A DNA stretch of 64,000 nt, from the NCBI GenBank assembly GCA_041752515.1, contig JBGSWI010000009.1:27-64026 (forward strand), read 5' to 3'. The translations under genes and the position numbers were made by a program. The DNA comes from Leptolyngbyaceae cyanobacterium (GTDB lineage Bacteria; Cyanobacteriota; Cyanobacteriia; Leptolyngbyales; Leptolyngbyaceae). Below the pieces are notes generated by a model. The model saw only the letters and a program-made list of their open reading frames with translations. It was not told the DNA's origin and searched no databases. This document shows, piece by piece, positions 3,616 to 12,891 of the stretch (position 1 is the first letter of the stretch; every line of letters starts with the position of its first letter).

Positions 3616-4998
3616 ATGTCTGGCACTCAATCTATTGCATTTCTTCGATTGCGCTCTGGCAAACGTGGCGCTCTGCGCCGGAAACCTGATTATCCGCTGT
3701 CCATGTCTGAGCCGATGGCAATTGGGCGAGATCTATGCTGCGAAATTGTTCTAGATGCATCCCTTTATCGCTCAGTTTCTCGGCGACACGCAGAGATTGT
3801 GCCTATTTTGGAGTGTGAGTCGCCTCAGGGAGAGCGGTTTTGGCAGGTTTGCGATCTAAACAGCAGCAACGGCACATTTGTGAATGGCGATCGCTTAAAA
3901 GGATGCCAGGTTTTGCAAGTGGGCGATCGCATCATGCTGGGGCAAAATGGTCCGGAGTTAGTGTTTGAATATCACCTTCAAGCAGCAGGGCAACCGCTAG
4001 ACAATTTTGGCGTGGCACGAGGTTCATTACCGCTGGCTCTTGATCCAACTTTGCCGTCGCCTAGGAACCGTAGTAGACCGGAAGATGTCAGCTTAACTCA
4101 GTTGTTTCCAATCTTATCTACCGGGCGTGAACTGACTCAAAAAGCTTACTTGGTGCCGGCGATCGTTACCATTACGTTTGTCGTGTTGTTATTTTTGGCG
4201 ATCGGCAATCCAGCGATGTTTAACCTATTGCTGGCGGCATATCTAGCGATCGCAGCGTTATATTTCATCTATCAACTGTGCGGCAAGCGAAAGCCCTGGT
4301 GGCTGTTGATGGCAGTGGCAACCAGCACGGTCTTGATTTTGATCAGCCCCGTTTTGGATCTATTTATATTAATATTTCATCACCTTTTGCCGGGTGACTT
4401 ATCGAACACCAATGCCGCAACCAATTTTTGGGTGTTGTTGGTAAAAATGTTTTTTGGCGCGGGGTTGATGGAAGAGTTGATCAAGGCAGTGCCCGTGTTC
4501 ATCGCCTTGGGTTTGGGACTGCGGCTGCGATCGCCCTTTCGATCTCGCGTTGGCGTATGGGAACCATTGGATGGAATTTTGCTCGGTGCGGCTTCGGCTG
4601 TGGGTTTTAGCTTAATGGAAACCCTGGGAGTCTATGTTCCCGCAACCTATAAGTCCTCCCTTTTAGGAGGGCAAGAAGCCGCTCAACTCGCCGGACTGCA
4701 ACTACTGATTCCGAGGGTGTTAGGCTTGGTCGCTGGACACATGGCTTACAGCGGCTACTTTGGCTACTTCATTGGACTCAGTGTGTTGCAGTTTCGGCAG
4801 CGCTGGCTGATCTTGAGCGTTGGACTGTTTACGGCGGCTGGCTTGCACACGCTTTGGAATGCCGCAGGAATGCTGAGTCCGATTTTCCTAACATTTGTGG
4901 GTGTGCTGTCCTATGCGTTTTTGGGTGCCGCCATTCTCAAAGCACGGGCGCTTTCCCCCACGCGATCGCAAAACTTCGCTACCCGCTTTCTGCCCTGA
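3616..4998 (+). CDS. FHA domain plus PrsW-family intramembrane metalloprotease
   Basis: FHA motifs IGR, SVSRRHA, DLNSSNGTFVNG; PrsW motifs AGLMEELIK, GFSLME, HMAYSG, HTLWN; start set at ATG 3616. Confidence 0.88.
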   Translation: MSGTQSIAFLRLRSGKRGALRRKPDYPLSMSEPMAIGRDLCCEIVLDASLYRSVSRRHAEIVPILECESPQGERFWQVCDLNSSNGTFVNGDRLKGCQVLQVGDRIMLGQNGPELVFEYHLQAAGQPLDNFGVARGSLPLALDPTLPSPRNRSRPEDVSLTQLFPILSTGRELTQKAYLVPAIVTITFVVLLFLAIGNPAMFNLLLAAYLAIAALYFIYQLCGKRKPWWLLMAVATSTVLILISPVLDLFILIFHHLLPGDLSNTNAATNFWVLLVKMFFGAGLMEELIKAVPVFIALGLGLRLRSPFRSRVGVWEPLDGILLGAASAVGFSLMETLGVYVPATYKSSLLGGQEAAQLAGLQLLIPRVLGLVAGHMAYSGYFGYFIGLSVLQFRQRWLILSVGLFTAAGLHTLWNAAGMLSPIFLTFVGVLSYAFLGAAILKARALSPTRSQNFATRFLP

Positions 4999-8396: not shown

Positions 8397-8585
8397 TCAC
8401 TCGGATCGGGCACGACACTTGCCCAATTTGATCGCGCGATCGCCCTTCCCTAAAAATGACACTGCTACTTTCTGGCGATCGCTAATGGACAGCATTCCCA
8501 GATGAAGCTTCACCGTTTTTTGGATGTTTGCCTTGGCTTCTTCCAGCGAGTCGCTGTGGGGATGATAGATCTTCAACTCAGGATG
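8397..8585 (-). pseudogene. degenerate HicB-like antitoxin fragment
   Basis: manual minus-strand translation HPELKIYHPHSDSLEEAKANIQKTVKLHLG resembles the HicB PEL...GDTxEEAxxNIxEAIxLxL motif; in-frame stop immediately upstream and no ATG start. Confidence 0.35.
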
Positions 8586-8606: not shown

Positions 8607-9377
8607 CTAAGCGCCTTTTCCAGGATCGGCGCTCATAGTGTCGAGGTAGGTAATAAACGCCTTTGCCCAAACACTTTCTTCCAGGTAGTGTTTCGTAATC
8701 TCAGCAAGGGTCGCTTTACTCGCTTTTAAATGGCGATCGGGGTTAAGCAGTTGATTGCGGAGAGTTGCCAGTTTAGTGGCATTTGGGGTTGTCGGATTGA
8801 CAATCTCAGCGTCAATGATTTCGTAGGCTTGAGTTTCCGTGGTGACTCTAGGATGCTGCTTTTGCAGATCAGCAAGAGCGGCTTTCAACTCTTGAAGCAC
8901 AGTAGTGAGTTCTGTATCCGTAGCATAGTTATGCTGAATGCCAACTTGATCATGCTGAATCGTGACATCACCTGAGTTAATGTTGCCAACTTGACCAATA
9001 TGAAATGTGGGTTGATTTTTAGACGATTCTGCCATGACGGTTACCTCGATCGCTTCCATTTGCTTTAACCATTGATCAATCCATTCTGGCGGGAATTCTG
9101 GCGCACCATTGAATGGCTTTTCTGGCTGCTCATGCAAATTTCCCACTAGACTTTCCCATTGGGTCGTGATGTCCGAGAGGAGCGATCGCAATTGGCTGGC
9201 TTCAGGCGAAAAATCTTGTCGATACTCCCCTTCAATCAACATCCAATAGCACTCCTCTGCCAACTGCACTAACCGTTGACTGGTTAAAGACTGTTGAGCA
9301 AGTTGCTCTACCTGCCTGGTGAAAGTGGTCAGCAGGAATTGAGAACTAGGTGAAATCAGGTGAGAGGTATCTACCAT
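8607..9377 (-). CDS. hypothetical two-part protein: putative immunity-like helical N-terminus, VGNIN/DQVG motif, helical C-terminal domain
   Basis: 256-aa ORF whose ATG overlaps the last codons of the upstream 100-aa ORF; carries VGNINSGDVTIQHDQVG at 8940-8990. Confidence 0.75.
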   Translation of the reverse strand: MVDTSHLISPSSQFLLTTFTRQVEQLAQQSLTSQRLVQLAEECYWMLIEGEYRQDFSPEASQLRSLLSDITTQWESLVGNLHEQPEKPFNGAPEFPPEWIDQWLKQMEAIEVTVMAESSKNQPTFHIGQVGNINSGDVTIQHDQVGIQHNYATDTELTTVLQELKAALADLQKQHPRVTTETQAYEIIDAEIVNPTTPNATKLATLRNQLLNPDRHLKASKATLAEITKHYLEESVWAKAFITYLDTMSADPGKGA

Positions 9378-9673
9378 CGATCAGTTTCCTTGCCTGTAAC
9401 AGGATCAATCTCAATATGCCCCAAGTCAATAGGTCTTTTGGGATGAACCCGAATCACTCGTCCTTGAGCATCATAGCTTTCGTACCAGGTGCGGATTGGT
9501 TTCCCCGTTGATGAATCGACTTCCACCACTAGCCGCGCCCCTGCTGTTCTTCCCGCACTTCTGGCTGGCTTATATTCGTCATAGTAGCGAATTCGCCCAT
9601 TTTGCAACACCCTAAAGCGATCGTAAGCCGCAACCCTGCGATCGTGTTCGGGAACCCAAGACAAATCAATCAC
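9371..9673 (-). CDS. putative stand-alone polymorphic-toxin-type ribonuclease (CdiA-CT/Rhs tip-like, BECR tRNase-like)
   Basis: GRIRYY...PARSAGRTAG...EVD..TG..RTWYESYDAQGRVIRVHPK pattern resembles CdiA/Rhs C-terminal tRNase domains; GTG start 15 nt after the NACHT stop. Confidence 0.65.
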   Translation of the reverse strand: MIDLSWVPEHDRRVAAYDRFRVLQNGRIRYYDEYKPARSAGRTAGARLVVEVDSSTGKPIRTWYESYDAQGRVIRVHPKRPIDLGHIEIDPVTGKETDRW

Positions 9674-9688
9674 ACGCTCAATTTAACT

Positions 9689-12600
9689 CTATTCAGAGCA
9701 TTCCCCCTCCAGCGCTGGCAATTCATACTTCACTCCCACCTGATCACCCTGAATTGTTGGCTCAATGTTTATATTTCCAACAGTCTCAGCGTTCAAATTT
9801 TCTAAGGACTCAATGATGTAAGTAGTATGAGCAGCCTGACTTTCTTCCCTTTTTCCTCTTCCCTTTGCCCTTTTGATTTCCTCCACCGCCGCCTGAGCAA
9901 TTTCGTAATTGTAGAATCCACAAAATCCCTGGATTTCAGAAATTGATTCAAAAATAGAATATTGAGGTGACGTTCTCTGAAGTTTATCTAAGTAAGGAAG
10001 AGAAATAGGTAATCTGATTTTGCCTAAAGCGCGAATTGTATCTTTTTGAACATAAGTGTCTGAGTCGCTTAAGACAGTTAGAAGTTTAGAAGCTACATAA
10101 TTGGTCTTTATTTTTTCTAATCCACGAATAGCACCTCTTCTGACAAATGGTACAGAATCCTTTAAAGCTTCAATTAACTTTTCAGTTAAAACTTCGCTGT
10201 TGATTTCTCCTAATGCATCAACAGCATAAGTTCGCACTATATCATCGTCATCTTGTAATGCAATCAAAAGCTCCTCAATATAAAAATCCCTTGCAAAATC
10301 ATTAAATTGTAAGGCAACAAAAATATTCCTACGAACTTCAAGATCTCGATGTTTAAACGCAGCTAATATACTTTGCTCATCTTTTTCAGAGATAATTCTC
10401 CCCAAAGCATAAGCTGAATTAGTTCGTACCAGTTGATGTTCATCTTTCAAAGCAGAAAGCAGTATAGAAATTGAAGTTTTAAGGCGAAGTGATAATAGTG
10501 CTTCAGCAGCCATAGACCGCACAAAAGGATGTTCATCCTGCATCATGATTGTAAAGTTAAAATCTGAGAAGTTCAATTTTCCTAAAGCGGAAACAGCATA
10601 ACCACGTACTGAAAAACAGTGATTACTTAATAATGTTTTCAATTTTGGAATTGCTGCTTTACAACCAATCCTTCCTGAAGCAAATGCTGCATTCGCCCTA
10701 ATCAAGCAAAACTCATGCTCCAAGCCTGAGAGAATCTGAAGTGAAATTTCATCGGACTTATTATCTTTTAATAGTTCGCAAGCTGCACTAATTAAATACT
10801 TATCTCTACTTTTTAAAAGTGTAGATAGAAAAGGTATGATTTGATTAGCATCAATTTCACCTAAAGCACGAATAGCACTCAGATTCACCCAAGATTCCTC
10901 ATCTTCAAGAGCTTTAACTAGCCCAGATATGGCTTTCTTGCTACCAATTTTTCCTAGAGCAGAAGCACACTTATTCCGTACTAAGGAGCTTGCATCATTC
11001 GCTAAGGTTTCTAACAGTGATTCAACTGCGACTTCAGCAACTAAGTCGCCTAACTTAGAAGCAGCCTTTCGACGAATATCTGGACATTGGTGTTTTAGAG
11101 ATTCTAATAACTCTTTAATTGACTTCTTGCTAGGAAGTTGTCCTAGGCTATCAATAGTAGTCAAACAAACTAAAATATTTTCACAATATAAGTACGGTAC
11201 AATAGCAGAAACTACAGCATCTGAACCAATCAAACCAAATGCGTAAGACAGAGTATATCGTGTATCGAATTCATCCTTGGTTAAAGAGTTTTCATTCAAA
11301 AATTTTAATAAGTAAGGGATAGCAAAATCTGATTGAGTCTGACCTAGCAGATTGATTTCAAGTATTTGTGGAATTTGACTTCCCAGGTTTAATTTAATTG
11401 CTTTCTCTTGGAATGGTGGCTTTACTCTGCCAGATAGTTTTGCACCTAGCATTAAATCCACTTCAAAAGCTATTCCTATAAAGTGAATTGTCTGAGCTTC
11501 CCTACTGATTAAACCCAGCATGAAAGCGATCGCTTCTGTCCATTTCAAATAATTCAAATAATGTTGCTTCAGTTCGCGATCGCTGAGTGTGGGAAGCAAC
11601 GTTAATAGTTTTTCGGCGGCGTAATATTCCTGAAACAGTTGGTGCAGGAACTCGATGTGGTCAAGATCTTTAACAACCAAAAGCTTGAATCTCAATAGGT
11701 CTTCCAGCCATGCTTTGGCATTTTGAGCCGGAGCTTCAACGCGACCTGTGAGGTAATCTTCTAAAATTTTTTCGGCTTTCGTTTTGGAGATAATTAACCA
11801 GGAAGGAGTTGGTTTGCAGGGATCAGTGTGAGGATCTCCCTGAATCATGGTGAAGGCGAGATGCTGGAACAATTCAGCGGTGAATCGGCGGGAGTCGCCT
11901 GAAATGGGTAAGGTGTGGGACGGTTTGAACTCTTCGTAGCGTCGAGCAAACTCTTTTTGAAACAATTCACCCCGATTTTGCGGTAGTTGTCCATCGGGGC
12001 TATCTTGCACCACATCGCAAAGAATTTTCAGGAGCAAGGGCGTTTCTGCTAGTTCTCGCAAGCGGTCTTTAAGTTGACGCAATAGGCTCTCTGCTCGTCC
12101 AGGCAATCGATTTTCAATAAACTGCTGCATCTGTGGTTCCGTAAGCGGCAGCATTTCCAGCTTTTTCTCAATGCCCAAATCTGATCCGGCTCCCAATTCC
12201 CGTGTGGTGAAGATCCGGGGATTGGTGCAAAAGTCGCGATCGCGTTGAAATTCATCCAAGGCTGACCAGGCAACACTGGTAGGCAACTCATTCAAGCCAT
12301 CGAATAAGAGCAAAAGCCGTCCGGCAAACAGCAACTCTTCGATCGCCGTCTCATCCCGCGTCACTTTTCGCAGTGACCTCTGAATCCAGTTCACAACCGA
12401 ACCATCCCGGCGATCGCGCAACTCCATCAAAACAGGAATAGTGAAATCTGCTTGTCCCTTCTCAATAGCTGCTAAAGCCTTTTGTGCTTCTTCCCAGTGC
12501 AATCGTTGTAAGGCGGTCGATTTGCCGGAGCCGGGTTTGCCAATTATCAAAACGTGGTCAGGTGCAAACGTCTGCAATCCATCCAACACCTCAAAGCGTT

Positions 12601-12766
12601 CTGCTTTTTCTTGCCGATGCTGGGTTGGATCTTGCGATTGGCGAGAGGGGACTGTTTGCACCTTTAAGGGCAACTCGGCTTCTGTAGGCGTATAGCGATC
12701 GCCCCAATCTTGAGAATTAGAGTGAGGCAGTGATCGCAAATAATCCCGAAAATTCAGTTCAGCCAT
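9689..12766 (-). CDS. NACHT/STAND NTPase with C-terminal HEAT repeats (NLR-like)
   Basis: Walker A GKPGSGKST, Walker B LLLFDGLNE, TPLLL, FLHQLFQEYYAA; many LxDxxxxVRxxAxxALG HEAT units; no recognisable N-terminal effector. Confidence 0.92.
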   Translation of the reverse strand: MAELNFRDYLRSLPHSNSQDWGDRYTPTEAELPLKVQTVPSRQSQDPTQHRQEKAERFEVLDGLQTFAPDHVLIIGKPGSGKSTALQRLHWEEAQKALAAIEKGQADFTIPVLMELRDRRDGSVVNWIQRSLRKVTRDETAIEELLFAGRLLLLFDGLNELPTSVAWSALDEFQRDRDFCTNPRIFTTRELGAGSDLGIEKKLEMLPLTEPQMQQFIENRLPGRAESLLRQLKDRLRELAETPLLLKILCDVVQDSPDGQLPQNRGELFQKEFARRYEEFKPSHTLPISGDSRRFTAELFQHLAFTMIQGDPHTDPCKPTPSWLIISKTKAEKILEDYLTGRVEAPAQNAKAWLEDLLRFKLLVVKDLDHIEFLHQLFQEYYAAEKLLTLLPTLSDRELKQHYLNYLKWTEAIAFMLGLISREAQTIHFIGIAFEVDLMLGAKLSGRVKPPFQEKAIKLNLGSQIPQILEINLLGQTQSDFAIPYLLKFLNENSLTKDEFDTRYTLSYAFGLIGSDAVVSAIVPYLYCENILVCLTTIDSLGQLPSKKSIKELLESLKHQCPDIRRKAASKLGDLVAEVAVESLLETLANDASSLVRNKCASALGKIGSKKAISGLVKALEDEESWVNLSAIRALGEIDANQIIPFLSTLLKSRDKYLISAACELLKDNKSDEISLQILSGLEHEFCLIRANAAFASGRIGCKAAIPKLKTLLSNHCFSVRGYAVSALGKLNFSDFNFTIMMQDEHPFVRSMAAEALLSLRLKTSISILLSALKDEHQLVRTNSAYALGRIISEKDEQSILAAFKHRDLEVRRNIFVALQFNDFARDFYIEELLIALQDDDDIVRTYAVDALGEINSEVLTEKLIEALKDSVPFVRRGAIRGLEKIKTNYVASKLLTVLSDSDTYVQKDTIRALGKIRLPISLPYLDKLQRTSPQYSIFESISEIQGFCGFYNYEIAQAAVEEIKRAKGRGKREESQAAHTTYIIESLENLNAETVGNINIEPTIQGDQVGVKYELPALEGECSE

Positions 12767-12891
12767 CAAAACTTTTGCAAGGGTGTTGTTTCGATGATAG
12801 GCGATCGCGCTTTTTAGCTATGCTTCCAAAACCTTCTGATCATGGGAACGAATTTGACTACCATAGATGAGGGTTTACCGAGGCAATCATC

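Follow-up and report, generated by a model that had tools for sequence, protein, structure and literature searches.

The window analysed here is a stretch of 64,000 nucleotides (nt) from a Leptolyngbyaceae cyanobacterium (GenBank assembly GCA_041752515.1, contig JBGSWI010000009.1, positions 27 to 64,026 of the forward strand), and it contains a small system of three genes in which a putative toxin and its presumed neutralizing partner lie directly behind an NLR-like (nucleotide-binding leucine-rich repeat-like) sensor. An earlier interpretation made from the letters alone, the sequence-only reading, had proposed that the last of the three genes encodes an immunity protein fused to an NLR-type tail, and its description of the gene proves accurate throughout. 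By homologue searches, structure prediction, comparison of homologous loci (numbered with the prefix L) and substitution analysis we find that this gene, an open reading frame (ORF) of 256 amino acids (aa) at 8607..9377 on the minus strand, is built of three parts, which we call the N-domain, the motif and C-module A. The features of the locus are the following.

9689..12769, minus strand: NACHT-HEAT NLR-like sensor of 1026 aa, assigned by Pfam NACHT and HEAT_2 matches and a Walker A motif.
9725..9826, minus strand: C-terminal motif copy of the sensor, residues 982-1015 (...ETVGNINIEPTIQGDQVGVKY), one of only two copies in the genome.
9371..9673, minus strand: p100, a putative free-standing Rhs-type toxin C-terminal domain of 100 aa, assigned by profile A2 and its RHS carriers.
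8607..9377, minus strand: the 256-aa fusion gene, supported by homologues, an AlphaFold2 (AF2) model and the ratio of nonsynonymous to synonymous substitutions (dN/dS).
9039..9377, minus strand: N-domain, residues 1-113, an acidic four-helix bundle and putative immunity domain, assigned by the AF2 model and the pairing with p100.
8922..9035, minus strand: motif, residues 115-152, MAESSKNQPTFHIGQVGNINSGDVTIQHDQVGIQHNYA, assigned by a predicted local distance difference test (pLDDT) score below 50, by conservation and by DNA repeat family D1.
8610..8921, minus strand: C-module A, residues 153-256, helical, ...LLNPDRHLKASKATLAEITKHYLEESVWAKAFITYLD..., assigned by homologues in cyanobacterial genomes.

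The three genes are closely packed. p100 starts with a GTG 15 nt past the stop codon of the sensor gene, and the ATG of the fusion gene (9377-9375) overlaps the TAG stop of p100 (9373-9371) in the string ATGGTAG, over 7 nt; the sequence-only reading had pointed out the overlap with the toxin stop. Since the 256-aa ORF has 62 homologues and, as a whole, a dN/dS of 0.19 relative to a 90%-identical locus, it is by these comparative criteria a real gene. Calculated part by part against L071, a locus 90% identical in DNA, dN/dS is lowest in the C-module (0.15), followed by p100 (0.165), the N-domain (0.21) and the motif (0.28), which indicates purifying selection on all of these parts.

The sensor matches Pfam NACHT at residues 72-219 and HEAT_2 with an E-value of 3.5e-59, the Walker A sequence GKPGSGKST is visible in its translation, and it is without an N-terminal effector domain. 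Its copy of the motif, TTYIIESLENLNAETVGNINIEPTIQGDQVGVKY, is located at residues 982-1015 of 1026 and is followed by a conserved end, ELPALEGECSE (window 9689-9724, minus strand). Near-identical ends, of the form ELPxxxGECS[ED] or KLPQQDGECSD, close the sensors of L002, L071, L072 and L077, all of which precede p100. Within the sensor gene the HEAT-repeat part (window 9850-11500) has a GC content of 34-38%, compared to approximately 50% for the NACHT part and the genes on either side; this block may have been exchanged or may be fast-evolving.

p100 is basic, with an isoelectric point (pI) of 9.4, and its AF2 model (pLDDT 94.4) consists of one short helix and a beta-meander. When profile A2 was searched against 1.84 billion representatives, with clusters at 50% identity, 691 clusters matched at E<=1e-3, and 516 of these also at E<=1e-10. 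The matching proteins are 140-2285 aa long and nearly always have the domain at their extreme C-terminus. RHS repeats are present in eight of the nine larger carriers that were scanned, and the carrier from Larkinella (L017) combines DUF6443 with an RHS repeat. On account of this C-terminal position in 691 clusters and of the RHS repeats in the carriers, p100 is a putative polymorphic (Rhs-type) toxin C-terminal domain, identified by its carriers and its position, so that comparative genomics upholds the toxin assignment made from the sequence alone. In cyanobacteria the relatives share 64-91% identity and have a uniform length of about 100 aa, and a survey at the level of the order around the Larkinella genome located the toxin tip in 2 of 301 genomes. 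No family was matched in Pfam, NCBIfam, PADLOC or PHROGs, and a sequence-profile search of the PDB returned chance-level matches only. A candidate reading of p100 as a CdiA-NC101-like BECR tRNase was dropped because neither fold nor sequence matched any solved structure. Residues 23-58 of p100 (LQNGRIRYYD.YKPA..PG.TAGARLVVE) bear a visually striking resemblance, at a chance-level E-value of 0.86, to residues 107-144 of 4f0p chain A (LDHGHVRYFGDHKPSTVGLPGETKGNRLLLE), a chain named "Restriction endonuclease" in the PDB.

Outside the cyanobacteria, p100-type tips are followed by a family of proteins of approximately 85 aa (…SREEAxxWA…IWxxφxYLxGφD…YLHxxDD…), presumably their immunity proteins, with 77 ORFs in the fetched loci (Jackhmmer; loci L087-L156 and L016-L018). 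These genes often overlap the toxin by the same 7 nt, ATGGTAx, and occur as tandem copies in some loci (L090, L152); the one member that was scanned had no Pfam match. The sequence-only reading had invoked the general rule that immunity genes directly follow and overlap polymorphic toxin tips.

In cyanobacteria this place behind p100 is taken by the N-domain. The sequence-only reading had described residues ~1-115 as an acidic helical domain, and indeed residues 1-113 contain 17 Asp and Glu against 6 Lys and Arg (pI 4.3, opposite in charge to p100), and AF2 predicts a four-helix bundle with helices at residues 13-27, 33-48, 58-83 and 97-116 (pLDDT 87-94). Wherever p100 is present, in 11 of 11 loci from cyanobacterial genomes and 9 of 9 from metagenomes, the next gene starts with an N-domain, mostly with a short overlap of 6-9 nt. 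Of 401 cyanobacterial genomes sampled, two have the N-domain and three have p100, with p100 directly upstream in both N-domain genomes and the third p100 being a contig-end fragment. The N-domain also exists in a free form, in at least six distinct loci. It stands alone, as a protein of 108-126 aa, in L006-L010, L013-L015 and L081, where it lies among other toxin-antitoxin genes with no adjacent NLR, and again in L082. In the latter locus an ORF that reaches the contig end encodes at least 524 aa, with repeats, a Ser-rich linker, a Gly-rich pre-toxin-like region and a p100 end (67% identity), and behind this p100-tipped polymorphic toxin lies a stand-alone N-domain (hidden Markov model E-value 1.2e-33). 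In L072 (6705-7004) and L073 (1842-2141) a nonsense codon replaces the conserved Tyr30 of p100 (RIR*Y), while the adjacent gene for N-domain, motif and module B is intact, an asymmetry that would be expected of a toxin and its neutralizer.

Because the N-domain begins the next gene after p100 throughout, and because it follows a true polymorphic toxin in L082, the comparative evidence supports its reading as the putative cognate immunity (antitoxin-like) domain of p100, and with it the identification offered by the sequence-only reading. The 256-aa protein as a whole matched nothing in Pfam, NCBIfam, PADLOC or PHROGs, its AF2 model had no match in the PDB at E<=1e-3 (Foldseek), and a PDB profile search gave chance-level results only, including the YefM antitoxin at E 0.21. 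Pfam and NCBIfam revealed no DNA-binding domain (ribbon-helix-helix, helix-turn-helix, AbrB or similar) in the N-domain, and the predicted fold is a plain four-helix bundle. In a tree of N-domains all fused forms fall into one clade (support 100/98) together with two free forms, and the N-domain of L011, which is fused to TIR, is sister to the free one of L008.

The motif that follows the N-domain starts at an internal methionine, Met115 ("MAESSK"). It is rich in Gly, Asn, Gln, Val and Ile, contains two xQVGxI units 15 residues apart, and consists for 67% of Asn, Gln, Gly, Ser, Thr, Val and Ile. A six-frame regular-expression scan of the 4.45-Mb genome found it only in the fusion ORF and the sensor ORF, so the shared motif noticed after MAESSK in the sequence-only reading is indeed present at residues 115-152 of the fusion protein and 982-1015 of the sensor. 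With a pLDDT below 50 it is predicted to be disordered as a monomer, and it is the best-conserved segment among distant homologues (79-89% identity, versus 43-51% for the N-domain). At the DNA level repeat family D1 links 9733-9758 to 8939-8964 and 8984-9009. Recent recombination between the two copies in the window was considered and rejected, since their DNA is only 69% identical, over 26 nt.

How general is this sharing of a motif between sensor and partner? The C-terminal tail of the sensor carries a matching motif in all 13 loci that were tabulated, 12 with this motif type and one (L080) with a second type. Split forms with the motif on both halves are found in the window and in L002, L005, L012, L061, L063, L068, L071, L072, L077, L083 and L085. 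In L080 the second type, VQMIF(L/N)xxVYGV(A/G)GNVEG, is located at the C-termini of a HEAT-repeat sensor and of an N-domain-TIR protein (2560-2675 and 3900-4030). Across the 13 loci the similarity score between the motifs of sensor tail and partner is 70.7 within a locus and 52.0 between loci, a within-locus value that was reached in 0 of 20,000 permutations, although relatedness of the loci inflates this test; the result stands without L080.

Ten of ten N-domain fusions, and the HEAT fusions too, have conserved Met115, at the junction (window 9033-9048, minus strand), which corresponds to the start of stand-alone 141-aa proteins composed of motif and C-module. In 6 of 10 homologues a GAGG, a candidate internal Shine-Dalgarno sequence, lies 8 nt upstream. 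Met115 may be a second translation start that yields a free 142-aa protein of motif and C-module, or it may be a relic of the fusion. In L083 (2381-2386) and L084 an in-frame stop stands in place of the motif's Gln (GDQ(I/V)G), with the C-module continuing in the same frame, and L077-L079 end at the same Gln codon (L077 3092-3094); such recurrent nonsense at one motif codon could reflect chance decay or something regulated.

The C-terminal part of the protein, for which residues 155-247 are predicted with moderate confidence to form five helices (AF2), has no fold or family match. The homologues are modular. The motif is preceded by an N-domain, a short HEAT segment or, in the 141-aa proteins, by nothing, and it is followed by C-module A, B or C. 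ORFs with motif plus C-module A, of 49-1338 aa, occur in 28 of the 401 cyanobacterial genomes (7%). C-module A is C-terminal in single-chain NACHT-HEAT proteins (L049, L053-L055) and in LRR-Roc-COR proteins (L050, L051), in agreement with the NLR-type tail of the sequence-only reading, and it further occurs in an EAD8 (effector-associated domain 8) protein of the architecture EAD8-X-C-module (L056), in a helix-turn-helix protein (L064), in short HEAT proteins or alone; L012 has an extra orphan C-module A downstream. In L003 the motif joins NACHT-HEAT to a CHAT protease in one chain. Judging from this CHAT protease and from the carriers of C-module A, the position after the motif is an effector position.

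The fused state of the N-domain is associated with sensors. Counting the fused forms for which upstream DNA is present, all N-domains that are fused follow p100 behind a NACHT-HEAT, HEAT-repeat or LRR-Roc-COR gene, L003 and L004 excepted, whereas free N-domains are never found behind such genes. The fusion partners comprise C-modules A, B and C, TIR (L011, L080) and, in L080, TIR with the second motif.

Taken together, these observations suggest that the NACHT-HEAT NLR is split and that its trans-acting effector arm tethers the immunity domain of p100, an arm that would consist of a RHIM/BASS-like, Gly/Asn/Gln/Val-rich motif and a helical C-module and is joined to the N-domain at a conserved Met. 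We consider this reading, together with an amyloid-like release of the toxin that is seeded by the sensor, about equally likely to be right or wrong. In the mechanism that we propose, binding of a ligand by the HEAT repeats would lead to oligomerization of NACHT and thus cluster the tail motifs, which would template a beta-rich (amyloid-like) co-assembly with the motif of the partner. By analogy with HET-S, refolding or sequestration of the partner motif may then disable the adjoining immunity domain, a step suggested by the motif beginning directly at the end of helix 4. p100 would be freed, the C-module perhaps being clustered as well, and the infected cell would stop growing or die. The most specific version, an NLR-gated toxin-immunity switch in which the prion-like motif of the sensor is also part of the protein that gives immunity to an intracellular Rhs-type toxin and templating unleashes this toxin, is tentative, and we would sooner expect it to need revision than to hold in full.

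Several observations weigh against tethering and sensor-seeded release. The AF2 model of p100 has no fold match in the PDB or BFVD at E<=1e-3 (Foldseek), and the N-domain belongs to no known immunity or antitoxin family by sequence or fold (Pfam, NCBIfam, PDB profile, Foldseek). Alignment of N-domain profile A1 with the ~85-aa family by hhalign is weak (probability 8.7%, P=0.004, 28 columns; 2% against a single ~85-aa sequence), for which reason homology with this non-cyanobacterial family is only suggestive and we do not claim it. The motif is not a strict RHIM/BASS3 sequence, as its cores GDQVG and GQVG place Asp or Gly at a hydrophobic position, and the 256-aa protein has no Pfam RHIM match at E<=1. 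The motif pair of the window itself ranks only 9th of 13 by similarity, and in L011 sensor and N-domain-TIR protein have no motif in common. Truncated variants exist (L077, L083), the homologue in L003 is without p100 and lies after a VapBC pair, and the same junction holds unrelated toxin-antitoxin pairs in L061 (an antitoxin-like gene with ParE/RelE) and L060 (an MNT nucleotidyltransferase).

The unrelated pairs at this junction fit an insertion hot spot. In the strongest rival explanation a selfish p100/N-domain cassette landed in the spacer of a split NLR, between sensor-motif and motif-C-module, and was then accidentally fused in frame by loss of a stop codon, so that the tail is a passenger and the sensor exerts no control over the toxin. 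To the ParE/RelE, MNT and VapBC genes at the junction, L077 adds a member of the DUF5615 family; the Met at the fusion point is the exact start of the stand-alone 141-aa proteins; and both p100/N-domain pairs among toxin-antitoxin genes without an NLR and decayed or truncated variants would be expected of such a cassette. It probably describes how the fusion arose. It fails to explain why lineages with N-domains of only 43-51% identity have kept the fusion, with dN/dS below 0.3 in every part, why the motif is better conserved than the immunity domain, why forms behind NACHT-HEAT, HEAT-repeat or ROCO sensors (L003/L004 excepted) are fused and unfused forms never occur there, and why the sensor tail co-varies when the fusion partner changes from C-module A, B or C to TIR or to TIR with the second motif. 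As a complete account, selfish insertion followed by accidental fusion therefore seems unlikely to us, given this long persistence, consistent sensor link and co-variation of tails.

Two further explanations rank below selfish insertion. The toxin-immunity pair might be a domesticated heterodimer, in which the N-domain holds p100 on the effector arm as an adaptor or as cargo, with the sensor concentrating or delivering bound p100 and the C-module or TIR acting as executioner; the effector position of the C-module in all-in-one NLR/ROCO proteins and after EAD8, the existence of TIR fusions and the residues that p100 retains in common with Rhs tips (H10, R27, R29, E51, H86) are all compatible with such an adaptor. 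Toxicity of the C-module finds no support in a fold or family match, however, and the p100 nonsense allele beside an intact partner implies that p100 is dispensable for keeping the partner gene, so we regard this explanation as improbable. We think it still less probable that the motif DNA is a homology handle for swapping NLR C-terminal modules and the 256-aa ORF a stored cassette rather than a working protein. Orphan CT/immunity (C-terminal toxin domain/immunity) cassettes in contact-dependent inhibition (CDI) and Rhs loci can be likened to such swapping, C-modules A, B, C and CHAT all occur after the same motif, L012 has its orphan C-module A, and in L003 a toxin-antitoxin cassette lies between duplicated gene ends. 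Yet the limited identity between the two motif copies in the window is too little for homologous exchange, and a start codon of its own that overlaps the upstream stop, as in translationally coupled genes, together with purifying selection over the whole length, likewise speaks against a stored cassette. Tethering of the immunity domain to the effector arm thus remains our preferred reading.

Several side observations concern the junction and the surroundings of the operon. In L003 (3900-5600) a DUF433/DUF5615 toxin-antitoxin cassette is located inside the 3' end of the NACHT-HEAT-motif-CHAT gene and is followed by a duplicated 77-aa CHAT C-terminus, and in L077 (3655-4014) a DUF5615-like ORF follows the truncated motif; DUF433/DUF5615 looks like a mobile cassette that targets NACHT-HEAT-type genes. 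In the window, the operon is directly followed by a 59-aa ORF at 8397-8576 on the minus strand, for which a promoter-like site is present at 8589-8562. This ORF matches nothing in Pfam or NCBIfam, and we take its segment ...SLEEAKANIQKTVKLHL... to resemble a fragment of a HicB-type antitoxin. A scan for promoters and terminators gave counts not above those in shuffled sequence.

Amyloid motifs that pair an NLR-type sensor with an adjacent effector have been described in fungi and for the bacterial BASS motifs, where the RHIM/BASS3 core is G-phi-Q-phi-G, i.e. (I/V)Q(I/V)G (bioRxiv 10.1101/2020.01.06.895854), and the E. coli Bab/Agp abortive-infection system uses NLR-associated amyloid signalling (bioRxiv 10.1101/2024.11.07.622273). 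The present locus resembles these systems (NWD2/HET-S, BASS/Bell, Bab/Agp) in the short Gly/Asn/Gln-rich motif on a sensor terminus and on the product of an adjacent, co-oriented gene, in the coexistence of all-in-one and split architectures, in the predicted disorder of the monomeric motif, in TIR and CHAT as alternative effectors, and in the cyanobacterial setting. It differs in that the motif is C-terminal on the sensor, after the HEAT repeats, instead of N-terminal, and internal in the partner (C-terminal in L080), that the core reads GDQVG, that a free toxin gene lies in between, and that the partner carries a toxin-immunity domain and a helical module, with no match to a Bell/HeLo-type domain (Pfam, Foldseek). 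In systems based on EADs, which are defined protein domains of NTP-dependent conflict systems (Kaur et al. 2020, PMC7159879), the NTPase and a neighbouring protein that bears the effector likewise each carry one copy of a homotypic adaptor, and C-module A can follow EAD8. Here, in contrast, the shared element is a low-complexity motif of approximately 35 residues that is predicted to be disordered; no EAD Pfam model matches the 256-aa protein, EAD8 being found only in the unrelated C-module A carrier L056. The absence of Bell/HeLo, RHIM and EAD matches, the C-terminal sensor motif and the GDQVG core mean that the locus is not a strict member of these known families.

From the side of the toxin, the locus resembles Rhs toxin/immunity pairs in the homology of p100 to Rhs tips, in the immunity gene directly next to it, often with the 7-nt overlap ATGGTAx, and in the occurrence of orphan and decayed copies. 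Unlike in those pairs, cyanobacterial p100 has, except in L082, neither an Rhs shell nor a pre-toxin or secretion domain, and therefore it would have to act inside the producer cell; furthermore, NLR effector modules are joined to the immunity domain, which is not detectably a member of the ~85-aa family of other phyla. Two small overlapping genes for a basic toxin and an acidic neutralizer, and stand-alone pairs among toxin-antitoxin genes, are reminiscent of the type II toxin-antitoxin systems that act in abortive infection, but here the toxin gene comes first, the neutralizer is without a detectable DNA-binding domain and the toxin family derives from secreted polymorphic toxins. The literature searched yielded no description of an NLR effector arm to which an immunity or antitoxin domain is fused.

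In conclusion, the locus links two questions, how NLRs pass a signal to their effectors and how toxin-antitoxin systems are triggered in infection, and its analysis defines three uncharacterized families: p100 (691 clusters), the putative immunity families (N-domain and ~85-aa) and the C-module (in about 7% of the sampled cyanobacterial genomes). If the proposed reading is true, a toxin-antitoxin pair would be triggered by amyloid signalling and a class of bacterial NLRs would signal from the C-terminus. In comparison with the systems above, amyloid-type immune signalling would then also cover sensor tails at the C-terminus and pairs of toxin and immunity protein, and it would include sensors of the Roc-COR as well as the NACHT type.

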